From an uncultured Candidatus Peribacteria bacterium (lineage in GTDB: Bacteria > Patescibacteriota > Gracilibacteria > UBA1369): a stretch of DNA of 64,000 nt. Positions 4,171-52,466 of the stretch are shown in pieces; the stretch's first letter is position 1, and each line of letters starts with the position of its first letter. The stretch covers positions 845,512 through 909,511 of the forward strand of contig OZ246407.1 of assembly GCA_965231025.1 (NCBI GenBank), read 5' to 3'. The notes beneath the pieces were generated by a model. The model saw only the letters and a program-made list of their open reading frames with translations. It was not told the DNA's origin and ran no database searches. The position numbers and the translations under genes are program-made.

Positions 4171-5733
4171 TTAGAAACCCTGAGGTACATCGTTTCCCGA
4201 AGTCGACGTCGTCGTGGTCGCAGGCGGGGTCGTTGTTACCGGCTGCTGGGTTGTTCCCGTTGTCGTGGTGACGGTTCCTGCGGGTTTGTTGTACGTGATC
4301 GTGAACTTCACTGTCTCACTCTTGTTTCCCTGCAGATCGACGGAATACATTTCGTACGTGTTCTCTCCGGAAACCAGATTGCCGCCGGCTTCGTTGGCAT
4401 AGTAGGTCCAGGATGTCGAGCCGGAAACGAACTTGCTCAGAGTATAGCCATTCACCACAACCTTATCGGCACCGTGAACCTCCCCGTCGACCTTCACCAC
4501 GCCGGTCGTGGTGGTGGAGTCCGTGGTTCCGTTATATTTCAAAACTTTGGGGGCGGATAAAGCCTCCGTAATAGCCGCTGCAGCCTTGGTATAGGTGATA
4601 CGGACATCGGCGGAGTCGCTCTTGTTTCCCGCGGCATCAACGGCGTAAAACCGGTAAATATTTTCCCCGGACTTATAGTTTCCCAGCGCTTCGGAAACGT
4701 TGTAGGTGAAACCCGCATCGCCCGCCTTGAACTTGCTCAGAGCATACTCGTCGGTATTGCCCGAAACCGTCTGGCTCACAATAACTTTGGAAGTGCCGGA
4801 ACCGACAGTCCCAATGATAACCATCTTATTCTGATCCGAAGATACGGCGGATTCGGCAGGCTGAGTAATGACCGGCGACGACAACTGTCCCGGAGTTTCA
4901 ACCGTCTGCTGGGTGGACGAGACGACCGCTCCGGACTCCTGTGTCATTCCCTCCTGGGTGCTGCCGACAGGCAAAAGCTGATTACTGATCTGACTGAAGT
5001 CCGTCGGACTTTCATCCTCGCGGCTATTCCACAGATACCAGTCCGAAAGCTTGAACTGGTCACTCAGGGCCATGAGCACGGAAGGAGTTTCGCGGTTCTG
5101 GAAGGCCTTCATCACCGCCTCGTCAAGATTCAGCTCCTGTCCGACGCCGACCTGAATGGTGTCCAGAATGGAACTCTTATCGTTATCGGTTCCAAGAATT
5201 TGAACATTCACATTTCCCTTCATCACGCGCACGGTTTCAACACTGCCGCTTTCAACTTCAAAGGTCGTTCCCACATCAATGACCAGCATGTGGGACGTTC
5301 TCACCTGTAAATCCGACTGATCCACTCCATCACTCCGGACCTTGTTCACCCAGACGGACCCGTGGTTGAGGGTTAACCCGATTTTTTCGACGTCATTGCG
5401 TTTGGTGATATCGGTAAGAACAACTTCGGTATCATCACCCAGTCGGACCATCGTCCCGTTGAAAAATTTCAAAACGCCACGGCTGTTCACTCCCGTTTTC
5501 ACCGCGTCCCCCAGGAGCATTTTGGTGCCGCTGTAGCCGGTCTCCCATTCCTTGGTGCCATACTGGAGCATCTTGGCTTTTCCCTGGGCAACGTAAAAAT
5601 ACACGTCGCCTTTTGCCGCCTGTAAATTGCTCCAGAGCTGAAAACCGAGCACCCCGATCACACCCACCCCCACAAAAATGAGAAAGGGAAGCAAATACTC
5701 AAACGGACGTTTGCGACGGTACACTCGGCGCAT
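4171..5733 (-). CDS. membrane-anchored FecR-domain protein with two C-terminal Ig-like repeats
   Basis: I prefer the ATG at 5733 (MRRVYRRKRP followed by a TM segment) over the track start at 5832. It has a FecR-like beta region and a Ser/Thr-rich linker. Two ~90-aa repeats each end in G(E)N.Y..Y(A/S)VD..GNKS. Confidence 0.6.
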   Translation of the reverse strand: MRRVYRRKRPFEYLLPFLIFVGVGVIGVLGFQLWSNLQAAKGDVYFYVAQGKAKMLQYGTKEWETGYSGTKMLLGDAVKTGVNSRGVLKFFNGTMVRLGDDTEVVLTDITKRNDVEKIGLTLNHGSVWVNKVRSDGVDQSDLQVRTSHMLVIDVGTTFEVESGSVETVRVMKGNVNVQILGTDNDKSSILDTIQVGVGQELNLDEAVMKAFQNRETPSVLMALSDQFKLSDWYLWNSREDESPTDFSQISNQLLPVGSTQEGMTQESGAVVSSTQQTVETPGQLSSPVITQPAESAVSSDQNKMVIIGTVGSGTSKVIVSQTVSGNTDEYALSKFKAGDAGFTYNVSEALGNYKSGENIYRFYAVDAAGNKSDSADVRITYTKAAAAITEALSAPKVLKYNGTTDSTTTTGVVKVDGEVHGADKVVVNGYTLSKFVSGSTSWTYYANEAGGNLVSGENTYEMYSVDLQGNKSETVKFTITYNKPAGTVTTTTGTTQQPVTTTPPATTTTSTSGNDVPQGF

Positions 5734-5796
5734 AAAAAGCTCAATAACAAAACCGCAGATAGTATAACAAGAACCGTATTGCTGTAAAGATAAAAC

Positions 5797-5871
5797 GCGC
5801 GAATTGGGAAAGTAAGTTTTCACCAAGCACACGCCTGAAAACTCTATCGTGCAAACTTTCCCAATTCGCGC
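5797..5871. repeat. perfect 17-bp inverted repeat with nested 7-bp repeat
   Basis: gcgcgaattgggaaagt (5797-5813) is the exact reverse complement of actttcccaattcgcgc (5855-5871). Inside it, agttttc (5815-5821) pairs with gaaaact (5837-5843). The element lies in the 5' leader of the FecR-domain gene. Confidence 0.7.
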
Positions 5872-5908
5872 AACCAGTTTTGTTTAAAATTGCTATTTAA
5901 AACAAACA

Positions 5909-6030
5909 CGCAACTCTCAAAATTCTCATTATGCAAGGAGACGAGATGAAACCGACTGAACCGTATTCGATATACGGTGAAGAAGGTTTCATCGCAGACG
6001 ACGCAGCAGAATGAAATTTTCAAAGTTGCG
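5909..6030 (-). other. 122-nt nested stem-loop starting 3 nt after the dnaA stop codon
   Basis: Three nested helices: cgcaact..ctcat (5909-5929) with atgaaa..agttgcg (6011-6030), gatgaaacc (5945-5953) with ggtttcatc (5985-5993), and accgtat (5960-5966) with atacggt (5971-5977). On the minus strand it is followed by tgtttgtttt. Confidence 0.45.
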
Positions 6031-6032
6031 CT

Positions 6033-7514
6033 CTAAAAGCCCATTTCGCGCTTGAGGGTATTCACGTCGCGCATCAAACGCTGATCCTCCTTGATCTGCG
6101 CCATGATCTTATTGCAGGAATGCAGGACCGTCGTATGGTTCTTTCCGCCGAAATTTTCGCCGATGGTTTCGTACGACTGATTCAAAAGTTCGCGGATGAG
6201 ATACATGCAGATCTGGCGCGGAATAATGACCTCGCGGCGGCGTTCAAGTCCTGTAAGCACGTTGCGGTCAATTTTGTAGTAGCTGGAAACCGCGTTGATG
6301 ACGTCGTCCAGCGTACGGACGGACTGGCGCTGCGGGGTATTCCCCTGCATCTGCCCGTTCATCCCGCCCTGGCCGTTGTTGTTCACAATGGCACCGTTCC
6401 CGGAAGCGGCATTGCCGATAACCAGTTGGGCCTTGTTCAGTTTCTGCAAAGCGTGCATCACGGAATTCATGGTCGGGTTCGTATTTTCCAACTGCGCCTG
6501 CCCGATGAGATTGATCAAAACGCCGATCATCTCCCGGACGCTGGTGGTGACATTGTTGGCAATAAAACTCAAGATTTCCGGATCGATAAGTTCGCCGTGT
6601 TCCTGGCATTTGCGCTGCAAAATAGCAACTCGGGTCTCAAAATCCGGAACGCAAACCTCGATGACCATGCCCATGGCAAAACGGCTGCGGAGACGGTCAT
6701 CCAGCCCGTTCAAATCACGGGGCGGACGATCGGCACTCATAATGATCTGCTTACCGGCATCGTAGAGTTCGTTGAACGTGTGGAAAAACTCCTGTTCGGA
6801 CGTGGCCTTGTTGGCAAAAAACTGGATGTCGTCAACAATGAGACAATCCACATTGCGGTACTTGTCCTTGAAAGGTTTGGTGTGGCGCTTTCCGATGGCT
6901 TCGATAATTTCGTTGATAAAATTTTCCGCCGTCATGTAGATGACGCGCATATTGGGATGGTTCTTCTGGATCTGGTTGCCGGTCGCCTGAAGCAGATGGG
7001 TCTTCCCGAGTCCAACCCCTCCGTAGATGTACAAAGGATTGTAAATATTTCCCGGCTTGGCCGCGACAGCCATGCACGCCGCGTGAACCAGTCGGTTGTC
7101 CCCGCCGGGGATATAACTGTCCAGCGAATACTTCATCATCTTGCTCCGCATTCCGTCCACCAGCACCTCCTGCTTGTTGGGAACCTTGCGGACCTTGGGC
7201 GCCTCATCCATCAGAATATTTTTCAGATCCACTTTGTCCGGATGCCCGTCGCTTAAGAGTGTGGAAATAACTTCGTACTCGATCTGGGAAATACCCGGAT
7301 CCAACGACTTGACGATATCCAGAAGTTTGATGTGATAGCGGTGGCGGATGTTGTCACGGGAAACAATTCCCGAAACCCCAACGGTCAAAATGCCGTCAAC
7401 GTAATTCGCAACGATGGTGTCCTTAAAAAAAGTCAGAAGGTGAGCCTTTCCGGCTTTTGGCGCCAATGTCAGAAGTACCTGTTCCCAAAAAACTTTCTTA
7501 TCCATCTTTTCCAT
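6033..7514 (-). CDS. dnaA: chromosomal replication initiator protein DnaA
   Basis: AAA+ Walker A GGVGLGKTHLL, IVDDIQF box, and a C-terminal DNA-binding domain (IPRQICMYLIREL...GGKNHTTVLH). Confidence 0.95.
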   Translation of the reverse strand: MEKMDKKVFWEQVLLTLAPKAGKAHLLTFFKDTIVANYVDGILTVGVSGIVSRDNIRHRYHIKLLDIVKSLDPGISQIEYEVISTLLSDGHPDKVDLKNILMDEAPKVRKVPNKQEVLVDGMRSKMMKYSLDSYIPGGDNRLVHAACMAVAAKPGNIYNPLYIYGGVGLGKTHLLQATGNQIQKNHPNMRVIYMTAENFINEIIEAIGKRHTKPFKDKYRNVDCLIVDDIQFFANKATSEQEFFHTFNELYDAGKQIIMSADRPPRDLNGLDDRLRSRFAMGMVIEVCVPDFETRVAILQRKCQEHGELIDPEILSFIANNVTTSVREMIGVLINLIGQAQLENTNPTMNSVMHALQKLNKAQLVIGNAASGNGAIVNNNGQGGMNGQMQGNTPQRQSVRTLDDVINAVSSYYKIDRNVLTGLERRREVIIPRQICMYLIRELLNQSYETIGENFGGKNHTTVLHSCNKIMAQIKEDQRLMRDVNTLKREMGF

Positions 7515-7770
7515 CGGGCCGGGGAAATCAACTAAAAAGATTTAAAAAAGTCATTAAATAATGACCTTCAAAACAGGCTGAATACTAATGACTTTTTTTG
7601 GCTTCTACAAGTGCAAAATTCCAAACGGCATCACTACAATCCCTAGCGATCTTGACACCCATTCCCTACTAGATCTTGGGAAAATCTCTAACCAAGAAAC
7701 AATTAGAAATTTCTATCAATAATCACCCCGAACTAAAAGAGTCCGGGGCGCAAGAAATTTTATAAAATTC

Positions 7771-9390
7771 TTAAAACAATTTGATGATATCACTATAGGT
7801 CACCGCCACGATGAGGATCATCAACAGAGCAAACCCGATGGTGTGGATCACGGCCTCCCACTTCCCGTTCACCTTCCTGCCGATAACCAGTTCGACGAGA
7901 ATAAAGAAGAGTCTTCCTCCATCCAGCGCGGGGAACGGCAATATATTGATGATCGCCAGACTCAACGAAAGCAGCGCCATAAAACGCAGCAGCGAAAGCA
8001 CACCCTGCTGCACGAACGTGTACGTGAGCTGGGCGATTCCCACCGGCCCGGCCACCCCATCCGGAATGGTGAACTTGGTAAAGAACGACTTCAAAACATT
8101 CCCGAACATCTGCACCGTGAGCCCGCCGAGGCGGAAAGATTCGTCAAACGCCTTCAACGGAGCAATCCACAACGGATAACGGACGTCCTGAATCTTCAGC
8201 ACAGTGGTCGGTTCATCCTTGTTATAAAGCGTCATGAACTGATTCTCGTGGGGATACAACACCGAAAGGCCCACGCCGATCAGCCCGTTCTTGTCCGGCT
8301 GAACCTGGATCGTTTTTTGCTCGCCGTTCCGTTCAAGAATATACGTTAATGTTTTTCCGGGATTCTGCTTGGTAATACCGATAACATCCTGCGGAACCGA
8401 AATCTCCTGCCCGTCCACCTGCAGCAGAACATCACCTGACCGGAAGGCGGCCTTCTCCGCGGGACTGTCCGGGAAAATATCGGAAATAATCACCCGCTGA
8501 CTGACCGGCAAATCAACCACGGTGTTCACCGTGGTATCCCCGCGCCACAACGTCATCGTAACCTGCTTGGACTTTGCCAGTTCGGCGACATACTCATCAT
8601 AGGTATAAAGAGGCTTACCGTTCAAAGTCAGAAGAATGTCACCGGGCAGAAGATTCCCGGTCGCAAACTTCACGTCAGGAGCAACTTCCCGCACCACCAT
8701 CCTCGGCAAAAAGATAAGTTCATAGGAGGAAAAACCCAGTCCGTCCTTCTCTCCGGCTTTAACGTTCAAAAATTGATGCTGCCCGTTTCTTTCGATCTCC
8801 GCGACCACCGTGGCGTTCTTGGTATTATTGACCGCGGCCAAAAGTTCATCCGCGGAAAAAATCTCTTTTCCATTCAGCTGCAACAGCTTATCCCCCGGGA
8901 GCATCCCGGCCGTTTCCGCCGCACCACCCGGTTTCACCTCTTTCACGGTCACCCCCTGCTGGGTCTGGATCGTACCATCCTGGATGGAAGCCAGAACATC
9001 GTCACCACTCAAAATCAGAGGCTGGATGCCGAACGTAAATCCGATCGTCAAAAGCAGCCAGGCCAGCAGAAAGTTCATGATCACCCCGGCGATCACCACC
9101 AGAATACGGACCCTTGCCGGTTTGCTGATAAAACTCCTTGGATTTTTCTTCACCTTGTCGTCGTGCCCGTCCTCACCCAGCAGGCGCACGAACCCCCCGA
9201 ACGGAATCGCGTTGATGGAATAGAGCGTCTCCCCTTTTTTGACCCCCCAAAGTCGCGGAGGAAGCCCGAACCCGAACTCCTCGATCTTGATCCCGCTCTT
9301 TTTGGCCACGATATAGTGACCCCACTCGTGAATAAGAACCAGCGCGGAAAAAACCAGGATAAAAACAATCGCGGTAAGAAAAAAACTCAT
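7771..9390 (-). CDS. rseP: RIP site-2 metalloprotease RseP (M50) with tandem PDZ domains
   Basis: HEWGHY zinc motif in the first TM segment, several PDZ-like GD.L..NG repeats, and C-terminal NILPFPALDGG. Confidence 0.85.
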   Translation of the reverse strand: MSFFLTAIVFILVFSALVLIHEWGHYIVAKKSGIKIEEFGFGLPPRLWGVKKGETLYSINAIPFGGFVRLLGEDGHDDKVKKNPRSFISKPARVRILVVIAGVIMNFLLAWLLLTIGFTFGIQPLILSGDDVLASIQDGTIQTQQGVTVKEVKPGGAAETAGMLPGDKLLQLNGKEIFSADELLAAVNNTKNATVVAEIERNGQHQFLNVKAGEKDGLGFSSYELIFLPRMVVREVAPDVKFATGNLLPGDILLTLNGKPLYTYDEYVAELAKSKQVTMTLWRGDTTVNTVVDLPVSQRVIISDIFPDSPAEKAAFRSGDVLLQVDGQEISVPQDVIGITKQNPGKTLTYILERNGEQKTIQVQPDKNGLIGVGLSVLYPHENQFMTLYNKDEPTTVLKIQDVRYPLWIAPLKAFDESFRLGGLTVQMFGNVLKSFFTKFTIPDGVAGPVGIAQLTYTFVQQGVLSLLRFMALLSLSLAIINILPFPALDGGRLFFILVELVIGRKVNGKWEAVIHTIGFALLMILIVAVTYSDIIKLF

Positions 9391-9412
9391 GGAGAAAATA
9401 ATAATTCATTAG

Positions 9413-40583: not shown

Positions 40584-40657
40584 TGGCTGGGGATGAGGGA
40601 TTCGAACCCCCGATGCCGCCTCCAGAGGGCGGTGCCTTACCACTTGGCGAATCCCCA
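40584..40657 (-). tRNA. tRNA-Gln(CUG), CCA encoded
   Basis: 74-nt cloverleaf on the minus strand: U1-A72 acceptor TGGGGAT/ATCCCCA, anticodon arm CCGCC-CTCTGGA-GGCGG, T-arm GGGGG-TTCGAAT-CCCTC. Confidence 0.9.
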
Positions 40658-40777: not shown

Positions 40778-41296
40778 ATGGCAAGCCCGAAAAAAGGCCC
40801 ACAGCCGTTCCAGGGACCGGAATCCATTGACGCAGCAATGGCACAAGGCATCCGGCTTCTCAACGGTTCACTGGTTTTCAACACCCCAGGAGGACAAAAC
40901 GAAGTGGAAATCGTTGAAGTGGAACCTTATGTACACAGGGAACATGATAAATTCGTTGATCTGTTCAACAAAAAACCACGCCAATCAGGTGAAATGATGG
41001 TTACCTGGATGATGGGAAACCCTGTGGTATTCCTGGTTGTCAGCCCGGAACAGCAGCGCATCGTCCATCTCAAAAAATTCCGCCTGGGAAACAAAGTGAC
41101 GACATTCAAAAGCATTTGCGACACCCTTGGGATCGAAAAAGACCAGATTGACAGGCTCGACGGCCAAAGAATGATGGGGGCCGGCCCGGAAGCATTGGTC
41201 CGCCTCACAGAAAAACCTTCAGCTGAAATCGCCGATATCCGGGTAAAAACCGGAAAGTCGGTCAACAGCCTGGGAATCCTGTCAAAAGGGAAATAA
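40778..41296 (+). CDS. hypothetical protein with weak resemblance to Mpg/AAG 3-methyladenine DNA glycosylases
   Basis: By eye, LLNGSLVF.T.GG...EIVEVEPY..E.D parallels the LLG..LV......G.IVETEAY..D block of Mpg. The protein is short and divergent. It converges on the large operon with a 5-nt gap. Confidence 0.4.
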   Translation: MASPKKGPQPFQGPESIDAAMAQGIRLLNGSLVFNTPGGQNEVEIVEVEPYVHREHDKFVDLFNKKPRQSGEMMVTWMMGNPVVFLVVSPEQQRIVHLKKFRLGNKVTTFKSICDTLGIEKDQIDRLDGQRMMGAGPEALVRLTEKPSAEIADIRVKTGKSVNSLGILSKGK

Positions 41297-41301
41297 ACAT
41301 T

Positions 41302-44300
41302 CTACTTTTTCCCGGTTTCATGGTTGGCAAAATCCAGCATGAATATCTTTGGGAACTCGGAATGTTTGGAGTAGAGCATAAAGGCTATCTTGGTCACATA
41401 AGCCTCCGACTTTCGTTTCTTCTTTTTTCCGGACTTGGGCATGGTCGGATCAAGCTGCTGGTCAGGTTCCCCTTCAAGTTTGATATGAATATTATGCAGC
41501 ATAATGCCCCGGGCAGCCAACTCGACCCTGGTTTCTTCGGTCAAATCCTTAAAACTTCCGCCGTTCTTTTCGTAAATATCCTTGAGAAACGCTTCAGCTT
41601 CCTGTGCCTCGGCATAATAAGCTTCCTGGGCCTTAATGTGTTCAATGTCACGTGAAACCTCAAGTTCCGTCCCGTTGATCCTGAAATTCGTGTGAATATA
41701 CCCCTTGGATTCATTCACCTTGTTCTGGTCAACGGTTTTGCGTTTTCCATTCACAATCTGCGAAGTTCTGGTGAAAACAAGATTGCTTAAATCAAGCCCT
41801 GCAAGGTTCGGTTTTCCGGTTTTTTTGCAAACAAGAGTGTAATTATGGAACGGAGCCTCATCACCCGTATCAACGGCCTCAGCACGGCCGGAGTAGTCCT
41901 CCAGCACTTCAAATCCGAAATGTTTGGAAAGCTGCTCCTGGAAAACCGCGAACTGTTCCGGACTGCAGACGCGGCTTGTCATGGTCAATAGAAGCACACC
42001 GCCCTCCCTCAACACCCTGTTGAATTCAAGAAGCGCTTTCACCCGTTCAACATTTTCCGGATTCTTGAAGCTCTGATCGAGCCTGGTGAACTCAAAAGCA
42101 AGTGCGCAGTTGGCCGCATCAAGCTGGCCATCCTTGAGGAACCTTCTCATGTCGGTCATCGATCCCACGCGGGGAGTAAGCTTCGGTTCAATCATCCTTC
42201 CCCCAAAATCAAGCATGTGCTGATTTAAATCCAAACTCTGCACAGCCCGGTCTTTGCCATCCTGGTCGTACAGCTCAAAACTCCGCTCAAGCACAAGCGG
42301 TCCCGAGGCGATGTCGCCGAAATTCCTGCCGGTAATAATCCCTTTTTCCTCAAGTTCACGGATAAGTCCGACGACAAAACGCGCGTTGTTGCCGCTCATG
42401 GAAGGTTCCCAGTTCTCGCAATAGATTTCGGCGATCATGCGGCCGTACTGGGCAAAAACTTCCTGGATATACTCCACTCCACGGTTCTGCAAGGCACCCA
42501 TGACCATGGCGAGCGTACGTTTGCGGCTCAAGAGATAGTTCATGATGGCCGTTCCCACAAACAACCGTCCTTCCACCACGCGGATAGATTCCGAAATATC
42601 GGTACTATTTAATCTTTCGAGCAGAGCATAATCGTTCTCGGTAATGGAACCGCCGTATTTCAACAGTTCCGTGAGTGAATACTTGTATTCGGCATGTTCA
42701 CGGATGCCCTGGTGAACGGTACCGGACGCCTGGAGAACCGTCACCTCTACATCACGGTTGGAACCCCTCGCAAACCGTTTAACGAGCTGCGCGGTGTCGG
42801 CCTTGTTGAACGTAGGCTCCAGGACAACCGCACGGTGGATATGTTCAAACTCATTCGTCCCTTCCCTCATCGTACCGCTCACGGAAAAAATAATCGTCTT
42901 CCGGTCTTTCCGCTTGGACTTCTGTATGATTTCCTTCCGTTCTTCATCGGTCGTGGAACCGTCATAAACCAGAACATCGACCCTGTCGCCAAAATACTCC
43001 CTAAGCCTTCTGGCGAAGGACGGATCGCGGTACTCCTCATGTTCACGGGTGACACCGTATTTATACATATTCTCCGTGACGACGACCGCGTCATACTCCT
43101 GAAGATACTGTTCGAGTGTCTCAACGGCCTTGTCAAAAAGCGCCGACTTCACTTCCCTGCCCGGAGCGAAGTAAGAAGGGTTCATGATACAAAGCGAAAG
43201 CATGTTGAGCTTCTGCGTTGAATCCAAAGCGTCATTTTCAAAAATGGCCTTGTAGATTTCCCGCTCCTCCTTGTTCAGTTCGTAATCGACATATTCCACA
43301 TATTTCTCCTCCCAATCTTCCGGCTCATCAAGCAGCAGATAAAAATCCAGGAGCACGTTCCTCACCACGAGCGGATCGTTATTCCTGACGGTTGACGCAA
43401 GGGTGCTTAAACTTCCGTACTTCACCCGGTCGGCAATACGAAGCTGGGGAACAATGTCATCGGGGCCGTTGGGGGTAGGATCGCCGGACATCAGCATGAT
43501 GTGGCCATTCTCGTAAAGCCCCGGAATTTCCGTCGCCAGACGGTAAATGGAATCGGTATAGGTGCCGTCCGGATTCCTTGCCCACTGGACTTCATCCACA
43601 GTCATAAAATCAAACTGCTGCGTCTTCAGGAGCTCGACGACATCATCGCGGAGCATGCTGTAAGGGACTATGACGATTTCAGCTTCAAGTTCCCTGGCTT
43701 TCTGTTCATCGGTCATGTTGGCAACAATCCTCCCGATGGACGGAGCACCTTCCGCATCCTTCTTATAATACTTCCTGATCTCATTTGGCAATTCATCGAC
43801 GATCATCGTGGGACAGACGTAAAGCATTTTTTTTGCTCCCACATGCTCTTTGGAGAGAAACGCCGTACCGGTTTTTCCCAAACCCATAAAAAATCCGAGG
43901 AGTTTCCTGTTTCCCGACCGGACAACCTCATCCTGACCGGTCTCTTCATTCTTGCGGATAACGCGGTTCCCGTCCTTCATCTCCTTCATCGCCACGCGCT
44001 GCCGGAGGGAAGGAAAGGTGGCAAACGTCCCATCCTTTTTCTGAATCGCCGAAACCATCCTGCCTGACGGAGCAATAGATAAAACATCTTTCCAGTACGC
44101 GATCAGATCATCGAATATCTCTTTCTGTCTGGGCTTGGCCGGATCGAACTCCTTTCTCAATTCTTTCTCGATCGTCTCAAAACGGGCAACGTATGACTCA
44201 ATCGGACGGCCGTCATATCCGTCTTTTATCAGGTCTTTGTACACACGGTTGCGGTACATGATGAAAACGAGCAGACGAATTTCCGTGAGTTCAAGAAACT

Positions 44301-45081
44301 GATCCGGAGTCCCCACAATGCCTATCGGATTGCTTTGCGGAACCCTGTGCTTGCCGAGGTATTCAGACAAAATACGCACAACCTGTGAAAACCCCATTTT
44401 TACCCTCCCGGATGAAATAAGAAACTGTGCGACGGCATCCGTACCAAACTTTTCGATAAGCGGCTTAAACTCCTGAATGATATGCGCAAGCTCCTTGTCA
44501 CGGACGACGGTATAGCTGATGTCAAAATGTTCCCGCAAATCACGCGGAAGCATATCCCGGAGAACTTCCCAGGACTGTACGCCGGTACATCTGTCCGTCA
44601 CACCGGCCTTCAGGCGTTCAAAAAGACCGCTGCCGTTGGCCTCAAGCTGAATCCATTGCTGGTTGAACTTCCAGTTCTTGTCCACCGGTTTGGGCATCTT
44701 TGCGCGGACCTGGGGAACAAGTTCCGCAAGACACATCGCAAGATCTTTTCTCCTTTCCAAATCCTGCACCAGGCGGAACTCACCGAATGTCTCCCGTTTC
44801 TTTTCCTGAAAAAACAGCTCAATCAGGGATTCCTGGATCTGTTTTCTGGCCTGCGAAACAACTTCAAGGAGGGGGCCTTTCAGTCGATCCAGACGCAGAC
44901 GCTTATCCACAAGAGCGCAAAGCTCGAATACATCTGATACCTCCCCGACGCCAAAATCCGAAAAACGGACATGGAACGAATCGACGACGGTCGTAATTTC
45001 ATCCGCCAGACCGGGATTCCGCTCTGAAGCCGCCTTTGCCTGGTCTTCGACCACTTTCCCGATTTTCGTGAAATCAATCAT
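41302..45081 (-). CDS. 1259-aa fusion protein: unknown N-terminal region, SNF2-family helicase, class I SAM methyltransferase, unknown C-terminal region (operon gene D)
   Basis: Helicase motifs: I GLGKTG (aa 400-405), II DEVQ (496-499), III MSGDP (531-535), V-VI ..SGTMREGTN...LEPTFNKADTAQLVKRFARGS. MTase-like motifs: FGDIASGPL, SLDLN, DAANCALAFEF, LREGGVLLL (aa ~915-1035). Confidence 0.75.
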   Translation of the reverse strand: MIDFTKIGKVVEDQAKAASERNPGLADEITTVVDSFHVRFSDFGVGEVSDVFELCALVDKRLRLDRLKGPLLEVVSQARKQIQESLIELFFQEKKRETFGEFRLVQDLERRKDLAMCLAELVPQVRAKMPKPVDKNWKFNQQWIQLEANGSGLFERLKAGVTDRCTGVQSWEVLRDMLPRDLREHFDISYTVVRDKELAHIIQEFKPLIEKFGTDAVAQFLISSGRVKMGFSQVVRILSEYLGKHRVPQSNPIGIVGTPDQFLELTEIRLLVFIMYRNRVYKDLIKDGYDGRPIESYVARFETIEKELRKEFDPAKPRQKEIFDDLIAYWKDVLSIAPSGRMVSAIQKKDGTFATFPSLRQRVAMKEMKDGNRVIRKNEETGQDEVVRSGNRKLLGFFMGLGKTGTAFLSKEHVGAKKMLYVCPTMIVDELPNEIRKYYKKDAEGAPSIGRIVANMTDEQKARELEAEIVIVPYSMLRDDVVELLKTQQFDFMTVDEVQWARNPDGTYTDSIYRLATEIPGLYENGHIMLMSGDPTPNGPDDIVPQLRIADRVKYGSLSTLASTVRNNDPLVVRNVLLDFYLLLDEPEDWEEKYVEYVDYELNKEEREIYKAIFENDALDSTQKLNMLSLCIMNPSYFAPGREVKSALFDKAVETLEQYLQEYDAVVVTENMYKYGVTREHEEYRDPSFARRLREYFGDRVDVLVYDGSTTDEERKEIIQKSKRKDRKTIIFSVSGTMREGTNEFEHIHRAVVLEPTFNKADTAQLVKRFARGSNRDVEVTVLQASGTVHQGIREHAEYKYSLTELLKYGGSITENDYALLERLNSTDISESIRVVEGRLFVGTAIMNYLLSRKRTLAMVMGALQNRGVEYIQEVFAQYGRMIAEIYCENWEPSMSGNNARFVVGLIRELEEKGIITGRNFGDIASGPLVLERSFELYDQDGKDRAVQSLDLNQHMLDFGGRMIEPKLTPRVGSMTDMRRFLKDGQLDAANCALAFEFTRLDQSFKNPENVERVKALLEFNRVLREGGVLLLTMTSRVCSPEQFAVFQEQLSKHFGFEVLEDYSGRAEAVDTGDEAPFHNYTLVCKKTGKPNLAGLDLSNLVFTRTSQIVNGKRKTVDQNKVNESKGYIHTNFRINGTELEVSRDIEHIKAQEAYYAEAQEAEAFLKDIYEKNGGSFKDLTEETRVELAARGIMLHNIHIKLEGEPDQQLDPTMPKSGKKKKRKSEAYVTKIAFMLYSKHSEFPKIFMLDFANHETGKK

Positions 45082-47890
45082 AATTCAGTGAACTAATAAG
45101 AACATCGACTTGTGCAATAAATTCCTTCCGTTTCGCCATGAGCTGGTCAAGACGAGTCTTGACTGCCGTGCTGTCCCGCTGGAGCTTCTGAAAAGGTTCA
45201 ACCTCGTGGCAGAGATCATCGGTCTCTTGACCCAGCCTGAGAATGAGAGCCTTCATGTTTTCAGCCGTTGCCTGAAGCGTTTCGGCCTCAGAAACCAAAG
45301 GCTCCAAAACCGTTTCGTCCGGTTCCTCAGCGTACAGCAGAGCTCTGATCTTCATTTTCACGACCTCAAGCCTCCGGGTACCGGATTCAACACTTTCCCG
45401 CAGACTCGAACACTCTACTGTTTTGCTTCGCAACACTTCTTTTCTCCCGTCCAAAGCTTCCAAAATAACGGCGTATTCGGCCAATTTTTCGGTGCACGAC
45501 GCAATTTTCTGATCAAGGGTTTTGAGAACAAAAGCGAACTTGTCGATCTCCGGAGTGGATTCGTGCACCTCAACTCTTTTGTTCGGAGCTTCCTGCATAA
45601 GTTCGGCAAAATCCTCAGGCGTCAGCTTCAAACTGATAAACCCTCGCATATCCTCTTCTTCACCGCTGTCATCCGACTTTCTTTTCGCCTGTGTCACCTC
45701 ATAATTCGCACGGACCTTCTCCAGAAAAGGAAGTACCTGGAACTCCACAACGTCAATCGGACATGCCACCCTCCCTTTTTCAAGATCAACCGTGCCGAGA
45801 ATACTGACATACAACTCAACCATGTCATATAAAAAACCTTTTCTTCGCCGCTTCACGAACTGCACCTCGTCGGCCCACTGGAGAACATTCTTGATGCGTC
45901 CACCCATAAAGCTCAAACGCTCTTCCACAACCATCAACTCCTTTGCCTTCTCCTCCCTTTCCCTGGCAACGAGCTTTTCTTCAAGGCAGGCGGTGATGAG
46001 GGGATAAAAATCACTTTCCTTGCGGACAGGATATCCCCCGTGCAAACTGCCGTTGATATTCTGCGCCCATTGCCCGACTTTCCCCTGGGCAACGAACTCT
46101 TTAAGGTGACCGGCCGCATCAAGGCCTTTTTGGAATGGCACCTGATCCAGATAACGCTTGAGCAACATTACTTCCTGCGGGTAAAGAGGTCCGTCGAAAT
46201 CTTCACGGTGCCGTTCCCCCAGCATGGCCGCGTAGACCATTCCGGTCTCATCGTTCTCACAAGCCCCTTCCGTCCCTCCCACAGATTTCCCGTCATGCAA
46301 TTGGGCGACAAGACTGCCGTAATCCAGATTCAACTGACGGAAATCAAAAGAATCCGCTTCACCAAAATAGACGGCGAAATCCTCACAGGTGCTCACCGAT
46401 TGAGCAAGTTCATCCGTCAACCCGCGTTCAAACTGCCAAACCTGTTCGGTAAAATACCGCTTAAGTCTGCGCGTATTTCCAACCATTCCATGAAGTTTTG
46501 CGAAATACCGCTGAATGGCATGTCTCAACAAGACACCAACCTCCGCCATGGCCTCAACTTCCCGTTTATTGATACATATGGACATTGAATTTGGGCCGGC
46601 ATGATCGTCTCTGTTGTTCAGGAAGAACTTTTCCAGAAGTTTTTTCAAAATCCCCGCATGCACGTCGGCGGCAAATGACCTCAAAATATCGCCATGGACA
46701 TCGGCAAGTTTGACTCCGCTCAATTCCGGATCCAAAACAGGAGGAATCGGACTTCCTTTGCCGGCACATCGGTCTCCAAGGAAAGCTTCGTCCCTGACCG
46801 GGAGACCTCCGTGGATAACGTCATTAAGCATCGCCGCAATTTCGCCGTTCTCCAAACCGTTCTTCAGAGCGTGCTTCTTAAGGGCATGTTCGGCCGGAGA
46901 ACAATCCACCACGGCTTCCTTGTTTCCGTCCGGGTCCACGAGCGGATATTTATGTTTCTTGGGCATCACAAGCGCCACGGGAGTATGAATATCGTATTCA
47001 TATCCCTTTTGATACTGTTGAAAAACATCGACATCGAGAGCACCGATAACCGCAATCAAAGATTGAAGACTTTCATGAAGAACATCAACAAGTCTTTCAG
47101 CTTCGCGATGCGTAGAAAAAGCGGCCTGTATCCTGGTTTCTGTCACTCCCTTCAACAAACGACCCCAGTAATTCCTGAAAGAATCGAAACCGCATCCCCC
47201 TTTCGCCTCATAAGAATGCCTCATGAAAAGCTTCAGGTTGTCATTTTCAGCGGCCACCAGCTGGAAAAAATGGACGATAATATCCAGCAGATCTTTTGAA
47301 ATAATTTCCGTATCAGCACCGGACTGACCGATGAATCTCATATTGCGCAACCTTGCCGCGACATCCCGCCCCCAATTGGTTTCGAGAATTACAATCTGTT
47401 CAAGATAAAAACTTTCCACATCGTCAGGACAGCCTTCAAAAAGCTTATACATGTCCTGCGAAATTTCACCGACCTCCTCATCGTCTTCCGGCAATTCCTC
47501 CTCCGCGGGACGATTCTGGAAATTTGCGTTTCTTCTGACCTCGGCGCAAACATCCGTAGTATAGGTGTTCACAAGTACGGAAAGAGGCTTTTCAAGTGAA
47601 ATAAACGGAGTCGAAATGAGCGACTTGCGCAAACCCCTGAGACCGGCCCGAACTTCATCGGAAACGGCCAGCAGATCCTCATGGTAAAGCACCCGTTCTC
47701 CGGGAATGCTGTCAAGAACGCCCAAAACCGCGTCACGAACCTCAATTAATTTACTGGCGATATCCCTTTCAAACTCACCACGGTCACGCCTGCCATTCGC
47801 TTCAAAAAGACCCTTCACCTTGTCGTATCCTGCGTGAATCTTGGTTCGTAACACATTCTTGCTGACTCCGTCCATCTTGTTCATAGTCAC
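45074..47890 (-). CDS. 938-aa protein of unknown function, helical with C-terminal coiled coil (operon gene C)
   Basis: Long ORF whose stop overlaps the start of gene D by 8 nt. GTG start at 47890, or ATG at 47884. No signal peptide, TM segment or catalytic motif recognised. Confidence 0.7.
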   Translation of the reverse strand: MTMNKMDGVSKNVLRTKIHAGYDKVKGLFEANGRRDRGEFERDIASKLIEVRDAVLGVLDSIPGERVLYHEDLLAVSDEVRAGLRGLRKSLISTPFISLEKPLSVLVNTYTTDVCAEVRRNANFQNRPAEEELPEDDEEVGEISQDMYKLFEGCPDDVESFYLEQIVILETNWGRDVAARLRNMRFIGQSGADTEIISKDLLDIIVHFFQLVAAENDNLKLFMRHSYEAKGGCGFDSFRNYWGRLLKGVTETRIQAAFSTHREAERLVDVLHESLQSLIAVIGALDVDVFQQYQKGYEYDIHTPVALVMPKKHKYPLVDPDGNKEAVVDCSPAEHALKKHALKNGLENGEIAAMLNDVIHGGLPVRDEAFLGDRCAGKGSPIPPVLDPELSGVKLADVHGDILRSFAADVHAGILKKLLEKFFLNNRDDHAGPNSMSICINKREVEAMAEVGVLLRHAIQRYFAKLHGMVGNTRRLKRYFTEQVWQFERGLTDELAQSVSTCEDFAVYFGEADSFDFRQLNLDYGSLVAQLHDGKSVGGTEGACENDETGMVYAAMLGERHREDFDGPLYPQEVMLLKRYLDQVPFQKGLDAAGHLKEFVAQGKVGQWAQNINGSLHGGYPVRKESDFYPLITACLEEKLVAREREEKAKELMVVEERLSFMGGRIKNVLQWADEVQFVKRRRKGFLYDMVELYVSILGTVDLEKGRVACPIDVVEFQVLPFLEKVRANYEVTQAKRKSDDSGEEEDMRGFISLKLTPEDFAELMQEAPNKRVEVHESTPEIDKFAFVLKTLDQKIASCTEKLAEYAVILEALDGRKEVLRSKTVECSSLRESVESGTRRLEVVKMKIRALLYAEEPDETVLEPLVSEAETLQATAENMKALILRLGQETDDLCHEVEPFQKLQRDSTAVKTRLDQLMAKRKEFIAQVDVLISSLNYD

Positions 47891-47901: not shown

Positions 47902-49824
47902 TCAATCGTTCGGCTTCGCCGGGACATCCTCCCGGGGCGATATAATATCCTGGGTTCTTGACCGTTCGACCAGATCGGCAAGGGATTCATCAAATATTCT
48001 CTGTTTTTCAGCCTCAAGTTTTTCCCTCGTCTCACGTTCAGTGCGTTCTTTTTCAATAAGCTGGTCCAAACGGTCAGCCTCCACCTGCGTGGCTGCGACC
48101 TCCGCTTCAAGAGCAACTTTTTTCCCCTGAAGGATATCCGCCTCCTGCTTTTTTGAAGCCATCTGGGCGCCCAAATTCTGCAACATGACATAATCGTCGC
48201 TATCCATTGCCGCCGTGGATTTGGTGCGTAACATACTGAGATCGGCCCTGAGAGAAACGATTTGGGCACCAACCTCCGCAAGTTCACGGCGTTTTCCAAC
48301 AACCCGTTGAAGCAGCGTCACAAATCGGGCCTGAGATTCTTCCCTTTGCGCTTTGGCCATTTCATCCTCAGCAGGCTGCTGAAAATCCCCCCTCACTTCA
48401 TCGATCAGGCTTGGCAAATCACTGTCTCCGCCGCTGAGTGTACGCTCCAGATTGCGAAAAATCGCCACGTGCGCGTCAAAAATCTTTTGCTGGTTTGGCT
48501 TGGCGGATACGGCGTCGCGTCCGTTAATGGTAACGACCTCTACCGACTGCATGAAATCCTCGATTTTCAAAAGTGAAAACATGACCAGCTTGCGATCATA
48601 ACAGGCCTGGTCCGCGAGAATCTTCCTGGCAGCCTCGATCTCATGGCGGACATACGAATTCCTCTGCGTTTTGGGCAGCCCGGCAATCCATTCCAGAGCC
48701 TGCAAAATGCGCCTGTCGATTTCGAGGTTCAGCTCCCCATTCCTGATATCCACCGTTACATCCAAATCATCCAGTACCGGCATGGGCACGGAATCCGGAA
48801 CTTCATTATCTTCATTCCGGACAATCTTTGCTTCTTCGTGAACTTCAACCCCGGAAGAACAAACCGCCTGTGCGGACCTTCGGTATTCATGGAACGGTCC
48901 TCCATAAACACTGGAAAAATCCGCAAACTGCCGGGTGAAATGATCTCTCGCCCACTTATTACCCGAACAACTATAATCCGGCTTATAATCAACAAATTCA
49001 TCGACAGACATGTTTTGAAAGACCTCAATGAGCCTTGCAGTGACGGTAAAAAGATAACCTTTCGTTTTGGAATCCAGTTTGTCGTTACCAAGGGTATCCC
49101 GCTGCCGCCTCAAAACGGCCAAAACAAAATCCCGTAACTGTTCAAAACTCATCCTATAACCGCGATCGCGTGCACCATCGACAAAACGATCAAGCTTGAG
49201 GAGCCAAGGTACGAAATGCTTAACCTCCTCGTTATACCTTTCAATTTTTCTTGATACATCTTTTGGAAATACCTGACGGTCAAGCAAATCAGTACCTACC
49301 ACTCCTCCATCGAGTGAAATATGACTCGCAATGCCGATCTCGACGGCATGCTTGTAGAGGAAAAAAGTCACGATATTTCCCAGTTGCAATTTGATCAAAG
49401 TCGAAGACGCCTCCCTCTTGTTCCTGTCCTTTTCTTCGATATACAAATCCCGTCCCCCCGTTGAAAAATCATAACCCTCCGCTAGAGATTTCTGTATTTT
49501 ACGTTTGTGGGCACCGACAAGTCCGAGCGCAAAATCTTTAAGTTCCCGGGGCACGCCATCCAGATTTTCCACCGATGAGGCGAACTCCGCGAACTTCGCC
49601 GCCACAGGTTTACAAAGCGATTCCAGGTCTTCCGGGAAATCAATGGAAAACGCAAATGTGCCGGATAATATTGCGGCGAGATCCCGTCGTAAAGCCTGAA
49701 CCCTGTCGCGGACGGCCTGGACGCCTTCATAATCCACGGCAAGCTCAGCATTGACCTCCTGGACGGAAGACTCAAACATGCCCATGAGCGTATCTATTCC
49801 CAATTGTCGGGGTTTCTGTGTCAT
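47902..49824 (-). CDS. 640-aa protein of unknown function, paralogue of genes A and C, C-terminal coiled coil (operon gene B)
   Basis: ATGA start/stop overlap with gene A. Shares the block ILQALEWIAGLPKTQRNSYVRHEIEAARKIL..KLVMFSLLKIEDF with gene A. Confidence 0.7.
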   Translation of the reverse strand: MTQKPRQLGIDTLMGMFESSVQEVNAELAVDYEGVQAVRDRVQALRRDLAAILSGTFAFSIDFPEDLESLCKPVAAKFAEFASSVENLDGVPRELKDFALGLVGAHKRKIQKSLAEGYDFSTGGRDLYIEEKDRNKREASSTLIKLQLGNIVTFFLYKHAVEIGIASHISLDGGVVGTDLLDRQVFPKDVSRKIERYNEEVKHFVPWLLKLDRFVDGARDRGYRMSFEQLRDFVLAVLRRQRDTLGNDKLDSKTKGYLFTVTARLIEVFQNMSVDEFVDYKPDYSCSGNKWARDHFTRQFADFSSVYGGPFHEYRRSAQAVCSSGVEVHEEAKIVRNEDNEVPDSVPMPVLDDLDVTVDIRNGELNLEIDRRILQALEWIAGLPKTQRNSYVRHEIEAARKILADQACYDRKLVMFSLLKIEDFMQSVEVVTINGRDAVSAKPNQQKIFDAHVAIFRNLERTLSGGDSDLPSLIDEVRGDFQQPAEDEMAKAQREESQARFVTLLQRVVGKRRELAEVGAQIVSLRADLSMLRTKSTAAMDSDDYVMLQNLGAQMASKKQEADILQGKKVALEAEVAATQVEADRLDQLIEKERTERETREKLEAEKQRIFDESLADLVERSRTQDIISPREDVPAKPND

Positions 49825-52427
49825 GCTTTTGATGAATGAAATTGGGCCGACTCTTGATAGGTATGCAGAAGCAAAACCCTCACATCACGGACAAATTGAC
49901 GCCTTCTCTGGTGCACCGCCTCAAGCCGGGATTTTACGGAAGCCATCTGCCCGGCCGTTTTTCTCCGCAAGTCGCGTGATTCCACCAAAGCTCCCAGCTC
50001 CTTTTGAATCTCATCGATGCGGGCGTCAATTTCCCCGATGCGGGCTTTCAGTTTCCTGGACTCGGAAATATGAACTCTCATCTCCGTAAAATGATCCTCC
50101 TTCAGCAAAGAAGGGAGTGATTCGAACAAAGCGGACCTCCGACCGTCAGCCAAAGCCTTTTCCGCAAATAAACCGGCACGTTCGCTTTCAAACGACAGTA
50201 TTGCCTGTTCAGCGCCGTCAACCCCATCGCCAAAATCGGATTCAAGCCTGAAATACTCTTCCTCAAGACCTGAAATGACAGCCTGAAATTCCCGCAGCCT
50301 TTCCTGCACGATTCTTGCGGAAGCGCTTCTGGCAGGATTTTCAAAACTCAATTCCCTGAAAATCCTGACGTACAGGGACATCAGCTCATCACTGTCCAGA
50401 CTCGTGCTGAACGCCTTGGTCGTTTCCTCAAAATCAATTTGGTCACGGAATGCCTCCAGTTTGAGGAGTGCGTAAGTGACGAGACTTTTGGGATGCTCCT
50501 CCGGGGCAGAAAGTACCTGGATCAATGCGGCGATTTCATGCCTTATATAAGTCTTTTTTTGCATTTCCGGGAACTGTCCGAACCATTCAACCACCGATTG
50601 AATACGCGTCTCCCTACCGGCAATCACGGGATCCGGCAAAACCGGGGCCTCAACGGGCCCCGACTCGCCGCCGGTAACGTCTTCATTGGCATCTTCGGTG
50701 ACCGCGTCGCCGGTAACGTCTTCGGACGCCACCTCGCAGGTTACGCTTTCGGCCGCCTGCACCGGCTCTTCCTCAGGTTGAGCCGCCGGCTTTTCCCCAA
50801 CTGCTTTTGCATCCAAAACATCCTTCCATAATGCGGCCTTGCAGGGAGTCGGATCAAATGCATACATCGACATGCGGAGGTTGACGGCCTGCAAAACACC
50901 CGGAGCCATACCCTCAAACCGCATTGCTCCAAAATCCTCAATCGGCATGTGTGCAATTCGTGCAATAACTTTCTCAAGAAGTTCCTGCTTTTTTTGAGTA
51001 TGGCCGCATAATTTCGATTTCGAGTTCGACTGAACGTATGTGGACAATCGTGACCCTAAAAACTCAAGGACTCTATCCCTCAACTGACCCAACCCAAACC
51101 CTTCGGCGGCCCCCTGGTTCAACAAAGGTTTTACCTGCTCATCAACGATCTGCAACGTTTTCCATAGAAACGTATCGACAGTCTTGAAATCAACGATCAG
51201 AGTGGCATCATTGGCATGAAGGTCATTACATCTTGTGCAGCAGTACAACCCCTGCTGTAGTGCCTCGGTAAAAAAAGGTTCATAGATCAAAAGCGCGAGC
51301 CGGTTGGAAAACTCATCCGGACTCTCCCTGTAAGCATCAGGAATCGGCTGAAAAGGTGAAGGTGGAGCTTCCGGTAAAGGGGAAACTTCCGGTGAAGCCG
51401 CTGGGGGCTCGCATTCAACGACCGGGACATCCGCGTCTGTCCCCGGTACCTGGACCTGCGGAACTCCAAGAGCGGATACCGCGGAATCCGGATCGCATTC
51501 ATCAACCTCTGCGCAAAGATTCCGGAGCTCATGTCTTTTCATCCCATCAAGAACTTTTTTTCTGTAAAAAGCCCTGGTATTCCCGAAAATCGCTGAAAAC
51601 TTCGGATGAATCCCGGCCTCCAAAAAATCACTTTCAGCCAGATGTTCCGTGTCCGTAAAAACCCCGTTGGCAAAATCTCTCAGTTCAGCAAGCGCCGGGC
51701 CTTTTATTCCGTAACACATCTTCAAATTCCCGCGCCTTTTGTTTAAAAAATTACGGAACGTGCGAACCAGATCTGAAAACCGGAAAGGTTTCTTCAAATA
51801 CTGCATGTGCTTCACATCTTCGATAATTTTATTCAACGCATCGTCAGCGAGCTGCTGCATGACATTGAGAAGGTCCTGATCGGAGGTACTCTTCGTATGA
51901 ATTCTCTCGCATCTCCCGCACAAATATCCACCTTTGTCCTCATAAACGGGAGACAAAAGCTTCGAAAAATAGATTTGAAACTGAAGCAACGCGGGTTCCA
52001 GGTTATACATGTAATCATCTCCCAACTCCAACTTCTGCTCCCCCATCTCCAAATCATACTTCTCACCAATCATTGCTTTCACCTTGCGGCGTTCGCTGAA
52101 AATAGCCCCGGTGAGATCGGTAACAACCATCGGAGAAAGCCCATACTTGGCCGCCGCTTCCTCCATGCTCGTTTTAACCGTGGCACCGATTAACTCACAG
52201 ACATGATCTAATTCAGACTGCCTCCCGATAGCCCCCGGAACCGCTTGACCTATTGAAGCGATAACATCGTCTCTTATTCGAGCCAAAGTCTTAACAATAA
52301 GCAGACTTTCCTCAGATACATCATAAGAACCGGCAATTTCGCTGTATGAAGCAGCGACGGCCTTGGTCAGGTAGTTCTGGCTTAAAATAGTCTGTTTTTT
52401 TGCCTCAGCACGCACAATTACGTACAA
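49821..52427 (-). CDS. 868-aa protein of unknown function with an internal duplication and C-terminal coiled coil (operon gene A)
   Basis: The first possible start is the TTG at 52427 (alternative GTG at 52415). Two repeat modules carry C(G/T)RC..(I/L)H. Acidic/Pro-rich linkers. Contains the block IQSVVEWFGQFPEMQKKTYIRHEIAALIQVL. Confidence 0.7.
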   Translation of the reverse strand: MYVIVRAEAKKQTILSQNYLTKAVAASYSEIAGSYDVSEESLLIVKTLARIRDDVIASIGQAVPGAIGRQSELDHVCELIGATVKTSMEEAAAKYGLSPMVVTDLTGAIFSERRKVKAMIGEKYDLEMGEQKLELGDDYMYNLEPALLQFQIYFSKLLSPVYEDKGGYLCGRCERIHTKSTSDQDLLNVMQQLADDALNKIIEDVKHMQYLKKPFRFSDLVRTFRNFLNKRRGNLKMCYGIKGPALAELRDFANGVFTDTEHLAESDFLEAGIHPKFSAIFGNTRAFYRKKVLDGMKRHELRNLCAEVDECDPDSAVSALGVPQVQVPGTDADVPVVECEPPAASPEVSPLPEAPPSPFQPIPDAYRESPDEFSNRLALLIYEPFFTEALQQGLYCCTRCNDLHANDATLIVDFKTVDTFLWKTLQIVDEQVKPLLNQGAAEGFGLGQLRDRVLEFLGSRLSTYVQSNSKSKLCGHTQKKQELLEKVIARIAHMPIEDFGAMRFEGMAPGVLQAVNLRMSMYAFDPTPCKAALWKDVLDAKAVGEKPAAQPEEEPVQAAESVTCEVASEDVTGDAVTEDANEDVTGGESGPVEAPVLPDPVIAGRETRIQSVVEWFGQFPEMQKKTYIRHEIAALIQVLSAPEEHPKSLVTYALLKLEAFRDQIDFEETTKAFSTSLDSDELMSLYVRIFRELSFENPARSASARIVQERLREFQAVISGLEEEYFRLESDFGDGVDGAEQAILSFESERAGLFAEKALADGRRSALFESLPSLLKEDHFTEMRVHISESRKLKARIGEIDARIDEIQKELGALVESRDLRRKTAGQMASVKSRLEAVHQRRRQFVRDVRVLLLHTYQESAQFHSSKA

Positions 52428-52438
52428 AAAAGGAGGTT

Positions 52439-52466
52439 ATTATAAATAAAAATACGTATTTGTCAA
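52439..52466 (-). promoter_or_regulatory. near-consensus sigma70 promoter of the four-gene operon
   Basis: Minus strand TTGACA (52461-52466), 16-nt spacer, TATAAT (52439-52444). The -10 ends 11 nt upstream of the first possible start codon. Confidence 0.55.

Follow-up and report, generated by a model that had tools for sequence, protein, structure and literature searches.

A SNF2 ATPase-methyltransferase fusion and its AAG-like neighbour in Peribacteria-type bacteria: a candidate system for purine ring-nitrogen methylation of DNA

Does a bacterial SNF2-type ATPase fused to a methyltransferase without the hallmarks of DNA-modifying enzymes nevertheless act on DNA and, if so, at which atom? The question is raised by gene D (41302..45081, minus strand; protein P0001), an open reading frame (ORF) of 1259 codons encoding both modules in one polypeptide, which lies in a 64,000-nucleotide stretch of an uncultured Candidatus Peribacteria genome (assembly GCA_965231025.1, contig OZ246407.1, positions 845,512 to 909,511), hereafter called the window. 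The data presented here are best explained by an accessory module, scattered horizontally among Peribacteria-type bacteria of the Candidate Phyla Radiation (CPR), with D as its catalytic core. A full-text literature search found no published description of the fusion or of the module, and a preprint on CPR methyltransferases mentions SNF2 domains in generic terms only.

The motor and the methyltransferase of D

Protein D comprises an N-terminal domain specific to and conserved across its family (residues 1-385; 43927..45081, minus strand), a SNF2-type ATPase core delimited by Pfam, PHROG and PDB profile matches (residues ~385-800; 42682..43929, minus strand), a class I S-adenosylmethionine (SAM) methyltransferase of the Methyltransf_11 type with a Rrp8/Bud23-like fold, delimited by Pfam, AlphaFold2 (AF2) and Foldseek (residues ~896-1090; 41812..42396, minus strand), and a small C-terminal alpha/beta domain seen in the AF2 secondary structure (residues ~1125-1259; 41305..41709, minus strand). 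The first-pass annotation of the window, made from the letters and their translations, had already described a helicase core at residues 385-795 (42697-43929) followed by a methyltransferase-like module at residues 915-1035 (41977-42339); these residue and nucleotide positions correspond correctly, and all the motifs that it quoted (GLGKTG, DEVQ, MSGDP, QLVKRFARGS, FGDIASGPL, SLDLN, DAANCALAFEF, LREGGVLLL and KKKKRK) are found in the translation of D.

The motor is assigned by several profiles. Pfam SNF2-rel_dom (PF00176) matches residues 399-565 with 32.8 bits against a cut-off of 24.9 (E-value 5e-8), Helicase_C weakly matches residues 695-772, and phrog_62 ('DNA helicase') extends over residues 390-805 (E-value 4e-32), while a profile of the D family compared with the PDB aligns the motor with SsoRad54 (1z63) and ISWI. 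The ATPase motifs are complete in Walker A (GLGKTG), motif II (DEVQ), motif III (SGDP) and motif VI (QLVKRFARGS), and ten of their residues (G400, G402, K403, T404, D496, E497, Q765, K768, R769 and R772) are invariant in the 18-sequence family alignment from which conservation in D was read. Judged by its sequence, the motor of D is an intact SNF2 ATPase, predicted to be of the double-stranded DNA (dsDNA) translocase type.

The nature of the methyltransferase is consistent across the family, and it is not that of a DNA amino-methyltransferase. Methyltransf_11 (PF08241) matches residues 942-1031 of D with 21.8 bits (cut-off 21.2) and is matched by all 17 aligned family modules (best E-value 1.5e-11), most of which also match Methyltransf_25, Methyltransf_31, Methyltransf_12 and UbiE, with a weak match to PrmA in one of the 17. 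None of the DNA-methylase families N6_Mtase (PF02384), N6_N4_Mtase (PF01555), Eco57I (PF07669), MT-A70 and C5 DNA_methylase (PF00145) appears among the 12 Pfam families listed at E-value ≤ 0.1 for these 17 members, and a regular-expression search for [DNS]PP[YFWH] is empty in all 22 family members (P0001-P0022). The first-pass annotation had noted the lack of a (D/N/S)PP(Y/F/W) motif in D alone, and this absence thus turns out to be a property of the family.

The predicted structure leads to the same assignment. An AF2 model computed from the family alignment for residues 836-1259 (mean predicted local distance difference test (pLDDT) score 82.7, predicted template-modelling (pTM) score 0.74), gave 698 Foldseek matches in the PDB at E-value ≤ 1e-3, of which the best 50 are all class I Rossmann-fold SAM-dependent enzymes and include no DNA methyltransferase. 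Nucleomethylin/Rrp8 (2zfu, chains A and B) occupies ranks 1 and 3 (E-values 5e-10 to 9e-9, template-modelling (TM) scores of 0.72-0.75 on the target), followed by a structural-genomics Methyltransf_11 protein, Bud23/WBSCR22 (4qtu, 6g4w) and many small-molecule methyltransferases. Rrp8 is the enzyme responsible for 1-methyladenine (m1A) at position 645 (m1A645) of yeast 25S ribosomal RNA (rRNA) (PMC3553958), and Bud23 makes 7-methylguanine (m7G) at position 1575 (m7G1575) of 18S rRNA (title of PDB 4qtu). For the methyltransferase, searching the PDB by family profile returned small class I enzymes only, the best being ToxA, a small-molecule N-methyltransferase. Methyltransf_8 (PF05148), the Rrp8 family, is weakly matched by four of the 17 subfamily members (best E-value 0.0035), and two more distant members lie at about its 27-bit threshold (P0100 with 27.2 bits, P0087 with 25 bits). 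The proposal that the module is a class I SAM methyltransferase of the Methyltransf_11/25, small-molecule/RNA kind, as opposed to the N6_Mtase kind, is therefore borne out by both the profile and the structural comparison that had been suggested as its check. Likewise, the absence of a DNA-methylase family, of the corresponding motif IV and of a structural match to a DNA methyltransferase upholds the earlier view that the acceptor is probably neither N6 of adenine nor N4 of cytosine.

The family has its own set of methyltransferase motifs, consisting of a pre-I motif NNxRF, motif I D-[LIV]-[AG]-[SC]-G-P, motif II D-L-N, motif IV F-D-x-x-N and a post motif ERVxxLxExNRVLKxGG. D923, G927, D951, N991 and R1013 are invariant in the 18-sequence alignment, and the SAM site is strongly conserved over 141 representative clusters (D923 in 117 of 138, G927 in 127, D951 in 132, R1013 in 129 and G1028 in 135). 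Because the SAM-contacting residues are kept across these representatives, the methyltransferase is probably an active enzyme.

The remaining parts of D are less easily assigned. The N-terminal domain has no match in Pfam or, by profile search, in the PDB; its invariant residues include C55, D59, R79, W171, R277, Y281 and R360-Q361, and the idea that it is a paralogue of one of the coiled-coil proteins A, B and C encoded upstream was rejected, the hhalign E-values of 0.01-0.1 being not significant. Beyond the methyltransferase, the first-pass annotation had pointed to an unassigned C-terminal region with a KKKKRK patch. The patch exists, yet it sits in a low-confidence loop of the AF2 model and is confined to the four closest homologues, and is thus lineage-specific. 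The conserved portion of the region is the small alpha/beta domain, which starts at an H-x-x-F motif (H1130 and F1133, both invariant in the subfamily) and consists in the AF2 model of the elements E297-306, H311-337, H347-355, E358-367 and E392-401 (model numbering, to which 835 is added for protein numbering).

The fusion is not an isolated case. A word-based search of 5.8 billion proteins identified 21 full-length or partial relatives of D with 25-73% identity; one is labelled Candidatus Peregrinibacteria, and 18 are collinear over the full length. Searched exhaustively by profile, 1.84 billion representatives yielded 730 proteins at E-value ≤ 1e-3 and 390 at E-value ≤ 1e-10, nearly all of them 800-2200 amino acids (aa) long and with the methyltransferase module at the C-terminal end. 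The family has a size of at least 390 clusters at 50% identity, and every member of identified source belongs to CPR-type bacteria, the titles of the related loci naming Peregrinibacteria, Peribacteria, Gracilibacteria or Patescibacteria metagenome-assembled genomes. In the five distant relatives that were scanned, Methyltransf_11 invariably follows a superfamily 2 (SF2) helicase domain, which is SNF2-rel_dom in four and DEAD in P0111. A phage origin of the family was rejected, as a scan of viral contigs gave no family member.

The gene neighbourhood and its distribution

Gene E (40778..41296, plus strand; 172 aa) is convergent on D and encodes a divergent protein with a fold that bears directly on the possible substrate. 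Its AF2 model (pLDDT 82.4, pTM 0.78) was compared with the PDB by Foldseek, and the nine best matches are all human alkyladenine DNA glycosylase (AAG; E-values 4.5e-6 to 4e-5, probability 1.0, TM scores of 0.58-0.62 on the query), the tenth match having an E-value of 0.15. In Pfam the sole family listed for E of the window is Pur_DNA_glyco (PF02245), at 11 bits and an E-value of 0.26, under the cut-off of 27 bits, and across eight members of the E family only one other Pfam family is listed (Chorismate_bind, a single weak match). An hhalign comparison with canonical CPR Mpg, represented by a profile of 12 proteins from genomes of the same class, gave a probability of 80% and an E-value of 1.5e-5 over 117 columns, placing IVEVEPY of E on IIETEAY; EVEPY thereby aligns with ETEAY, and the Glu of this E-x-E-x-Y motif, whose Glu-x-Tyr is catalytic in AAG, is kept in six of the eight members. 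As far as its modelled structure can tell, E is a remote homologue of alkyladenine DNA glycosylase with an AAG fold. Marginal SUMO2 matches in a hidden Markov model (HMM) search of the PDB had raised the candidate of a ubiquitin/SUMO-like protein, which was dropped since the AF2 model matched AAG only and the profile matched Mpg. No hhalign signal was obtained for a docking module common to E and to A, B, C or D.

The association of E with D is recurrent. Iterated HMM searches of fetched loci detected E homologues, 19-81% identical to E of the window, at the 3' end of D in six other loci (L024, L004, L009, L003, L007 and L008), giving seven genomes with the window included. The partners share 25-81% identity with one another, and the other flanks differ among these loci. 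Only three strong matches to E occur in 121 genomes of the order, and all three are in D-positive genomes and adjoin D (hypergeometric probability 1.9e-4 = 56/287,980). The complete 1.49-Mb genome of the window (G000) has no canonical Mpg (PF02245), a gene that 31 of 151 genomes of the class possess, and E is its only AAG-fold gene. The stop codons of E and D are separated by 5 nucleotides (41297-41301), with no terminator-like hairpin between them; the two transcripts must therefore overlap, unless termination falls inside the opposite gene.

Upstream of D, three further genes on the minus strand complete a tight predicted four-gene operon in the order A, B, C, D. Gene A (49821..52427; 868 aa) is a full-length paralogue of C, gene B (47902..49824; 640 aa) is a paralogue of A and C in its C-terminal 250 aa, and gene C (45074..47890; 938 aa) encodes an alpha-helical protein with a C-terminal coiled coil, its stop overlapping the start of D by 8 nucleotides. 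These relationships were established by hhalign (C-A, probability 95% over 830 columns; A-B, 98.4% over the C-terminal 250 residues; C-B, 82%). A sigma-70-like promoter before gene A (TTGACA-16-TATAAT; 52439..52466, minus strand) agrees with the consensus at 12 of 12 positions and is the best of the region, as a pattern match only. At every locus examined, the ORF that adjoins the start of D, or overlaps it, is C-like; two other loci have the four-gene version, and ahead of D there are always between one and three coiled-coil paralogues, which evolve fast. When the window is compared with L024, its nearest relative, identity amounts to 73% for D and 81% for E as against 39% for C, 33% for A and 29% for B; the partners A, B and C diverge far faster than D.

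No family beyond coiled-coil noise was found for A, B and C in Pfam, PADLOC, NCBIfam or PHROGs, the long coiled coils giving weak SMC-like matches in NCBIfam; the profile of the C family matched coiled-coil proteins only in the PDB, and a PADLOC match of B to Cas6 was judged spurious. Protein A (49821-52427) has two candidate zinc knuckles, the CxxC...H motifs CGRCERIH and CCTRCNDLH, with a Pro/Glu-rich linker between them; B and C show neither. In the related locus L025 (20885-22993), a RelE toxin gene and an Abi_C gene lie near a four-gene version of the module (1533, 640, 819 and 1281 aa), which hints at a defence or mobile neighbourhood. In L028 (171-18173), a Gracilibacteria-labelled contig, a distant D relative of 1739 aa is found among giant ORFs of 2602 and 1519 aa, with an upstream ORF of 1560 aa running off the locus; for none of these giant ORFs was a Pfam match or a similarity to A, B or C detected, and a Y1 transposase adjoins.

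The distribution of the module is sparse. D is present in eight of 121 genomes of the order and in six of 401 genomes of a phylum-wide sample, and is absent from the genome of the same genus (G064). In the window the module sits within the interval between RecQ and gmk, with RlmA, YihA and RecQ among its neighbours and a tRNA-Gln(CUG) gene at its flank (40584..40657, minus strand; ARAGORN), a possible boundary of the variable interval. In the same-genus genome (locus L023, contig C2, 136000-155999), RecQ and gmk-ssb flank a different insert of 13.8 kb (locus coordinates 2733-16092) that encodes a HEAT-like protein of 449 aa, a ResIII helicase, a SIR2-like protein, an AIPR abortive-infection protein, a type IIG restriction-modification (R-M) enzyme (Eco57I/N6_Mtase) and a large serine recombinase, and that is devoid of YihA, the tRNA-Gln gene and the E-D-C-B-A module. 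The presence of this defence island at the same interval in the sister genome indicates that the module of the window occupies a variable interval of the defence-island type.

A possible mechanism and its alternatives

SNF2 ATPases are translocases of duplex DNA, and the conserved neighbour of D has an alkylpurine-DNA-glycosylase fold; because of these two features DNA still appears the most likely substrate, at an atom different from N6 of adenine or N4 of cytosine. A tentative reading that we regard as credible, and prefer, is that of an accessory system for conflict: its motor would move a methyltransferase specific for purine ring nitrogens along DNA, and the product would be read or excised by the AAG-like partner. 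The SNF2 motor would track along the duplex, distorting it and giving the tethered methyltransferase access; D would methylate, as Rrp8 and Bud23 do in rRNA, a purine ring nitrogen (product of the m1A, 3-methyladenine (m3A) or m7G type) and not the exocyclic amines used in restriction-modification. E would then recognise or excise the methylpurine made by D, with the outcome either that marked foreign DNA is converted to abasic sites or that E serves as an antidote cleaning the host's own DNA, and the fast-evolving coiled-coil proteins A, B and C could be target-selecting or scaffolding subunits. A more specific version of this proposal, which we consider rather doubtful, is that CPR bacteria have an enzyme whose purpose is to place an N-methylpurine of the 'damage' type (m1A, m3A or m7G) in duplex DNA, by means of an ATP-driven SNF2 motor joined to a methyltransferase of rRNA-enzyme descent, the base then to be excised or read by a dedicated AAG-derived protein in a write-and-excise or toxin-antidote conflict with the coiled coils choosing the target.

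Several observations weigh against a DNA-directed conflict system of this kind. m1A and m3A are toxic in a cell's own DNA, and a mechanism separating self from foreign DNA is not evident; CPR bacteria are episymbionts, for which a role in conflict with the host or in regulation is also conceivable. The module of the window includes no nuclease, integrase or known defence gene, PADLOC having given just a weak match to mad2. The lead of Rrp8 and Bud23 over generic small-molecule methyltransferases is modest (Foldseek E-values of 5e-10 versus ~1e-7), so that 'Rrp8/Bud23-like' denotes resemblance and not membership, and D of the window itself has no match to PF05148 (cut-off 27 bits). As to E, the motif Glu is lost in two of the eight members (L007 and L008), and the DNA-intercalating tyrosine of AAG has no obvious counterpart; E may consequently bind rather than cut. 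At the sensitivity used, moreover, E was not detected in five of the eight D-positive genomes of the order, and it is thus a subclade-specific accessory that is not obligatory.

The same data can be read in other ways. The leading Foldseek matches are rRNA base methyltransferases, Methyltransf_8 is matched in distant members and D lies among translation and repair genes (RlmA, YihA, RecQ), all of which would suit an enzyme of RNA or ribonucleoprotein, making m1A or m7G in rRNA or tRNA, with the SNF2-like ATPase as a ribonucleoprotein remodeller or a RapA-like factor associated with RNA polymerase and with E unrelated or RNA-binding. A module that only 1.5-7% of related genomes carry, and that the same-genus genome lacks, is, however, a poor fit for ribosome maturation; together with the dsDNA-translocating nature of SNF2 ATPases, the DNA-glycosylase fold of the conserved partner and the conflict-like rates at which the partners evolve, this makes an RNA target unlikely. 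If the acceptor were instead a protein (the coiled-coil partners or a nucleoid protein) or a small molecule, or if the domain were a SAM-sensing regulator of the motor, the very diverse substrates of Methyltransf_11-type enzymes, the best PDB sequence match to ToxA, the weak PrmA match of one member and the atypical motif I of D (D-I-A-S-G-P) would all be accommodated. The A/S variant of motif I is nevertheless the norm in the family and the SAM-contacting acids are strongly conserved, which favours catalysis while remaining silent on the acceptor, and the linkage to a DNA-glycosylase fold would be left unexplained; we judge these possibilities distinctly unlikely.

Two further readings keep DNA or the chromosome as the target. 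The pairing of a methyltransferase with a glycosylase in a defence-island location recalls restriction-modification, in which D would write a tolerated non-canonical self mark (m7G, for example) and E would act, by analogy with R.PabI, as a restriction glycosylase on unmarked DNA. The AAG fold, in contrast, recognises alkylated and not normal purines, an R-M pair should retain both partners where most D-positive genomes of the order have no detected E, and the module is without a specificity subunit of known kind; although base-excision restriction enzymes are known to exist (PMC10273834), such a logic is very unlikely here. The long coiled coils with weak SMC-like matches, a motor of the SNF2 remodeller type and the housekeeping genes that flank D in several genomes could, finally, indicate housekeeping chromosome organisation, with A, B and C as a nucleoid scaffold and D remodelling or marking chromatin-like structures in no conflict role. 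Against this stand the sparse and patchy distribution, the hot-spot location where the sister genome carries defence genes and a recombinase, and the extreme divergence of the partners (29-39% identity where D has 73%), and it is the reading to which we give the least credence.

Implications and comparison with known systems

The D family poses a testable question, namely whether cells purposely install ring-nitrogen methylpurines in DNA. Were this true, it would represent a new chemistry for DNA modification and defence, and a nucleic-acid conflict conducted through enzymatic alkylation instead of nuclease cleavage. It would also provide enzymes of a new, programmable kind for damaging or marking DNA and account for an orphan gene module in organisms of largely unknown biology. 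Should the target be RNA or protein instead, the family would still show bacteria using SNF2 motors in a new way.

Among individual proteins, the best structural matches of the methyltransferase, Rrp8/nucleomethylin (PF05148; 2zfu) and Bud23/WBSCR22 (4qtu, 6g4w), share its compact Methyltransf_11-like Rossmann fold; they are, however, eukaryotic enzymes of 25S/28S rRNA (m1A) and 18S rRNA (m7G), respectively, acting alone or bound to Trm112 and without a motor, whereas the substrate of D is probably DNA. AAG/MPG (PF02245; 1bnk, 1f4r, 3uby) is the sole fold matched by the model of E, with an aligned E-x-E-x-Y motif, from which E differs in being shorter, below threshold in Pfam and, across the order (121 genomes), confined to sites adjoining D instead of being a general repair gene.

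To our knowledge, the well-studied prokaryotic systems that combine a motor and a methyltransferase (type I and III R-M, BREX, DISARM and DarB-like proteins) all use N6-adenine, N4-cytosine or C5-cytosine methyltransferases. DISARM (with the SNF2 helicase DrmD and the methyltransferases DrmMI/MII) and BREX (PglX) resemble the D module as accessory systems of defence islands that associate an SF2/SNF2 ATPase and a methyltransferase with large proteins of unknown role. In both, the methyltransferase is a separate polypeptide that modifies N6 of adenine or C5 of cytosine in DNA, and in D it is fused, of a non-DNA type and accompanied by a glycosylase-fold partner. Both were rejected as assignments, since PADLOC gives no match to Drm proteins (DrmA, DrmB DUF1998, DrmC PLD, DrmMI/MII), PglZ or BrxC/L for D, C, B, A and their neighbours, and MADS was rejected as well, the match of D to mad2 being weak and local (E-value 7.8e-5, 19.7 bits, residues 947-1064) with no other mad match in the neighbourhood. 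The P1 DarB-type methylase-helicase polyvalent proteins of phages and conjugative elements (PHROG 62) unite, like D with its phrog_62 match, a methyltransferase and an SF2 motor in one polypeptide. Their methylase is an N-terminal N6-adenine DNA methyltransferase, in contrast with the C-terminal Methyltransf_11-type module of D, whose family has no member in the viral contigs scanned. In Dnmt5 of fungi and algae, an ATP-driven SNF2 motor is covalently coupled to a DNA methyltransferase, although this is a eukaryotic enzyme of maintenance methylation with a C5-cytosine domain (PF00145) that was not detected in the D family. The D module lies outside all of these systems, since it has neither a methyltransferase of the DNA type nor Drm, Pgl or Brx partners and matches mad2 only weakly and locally; in the way it works it is nonetheless somewhat like DISARM, BREX and DarB-type systems and, conceptually, like Dnmt5.

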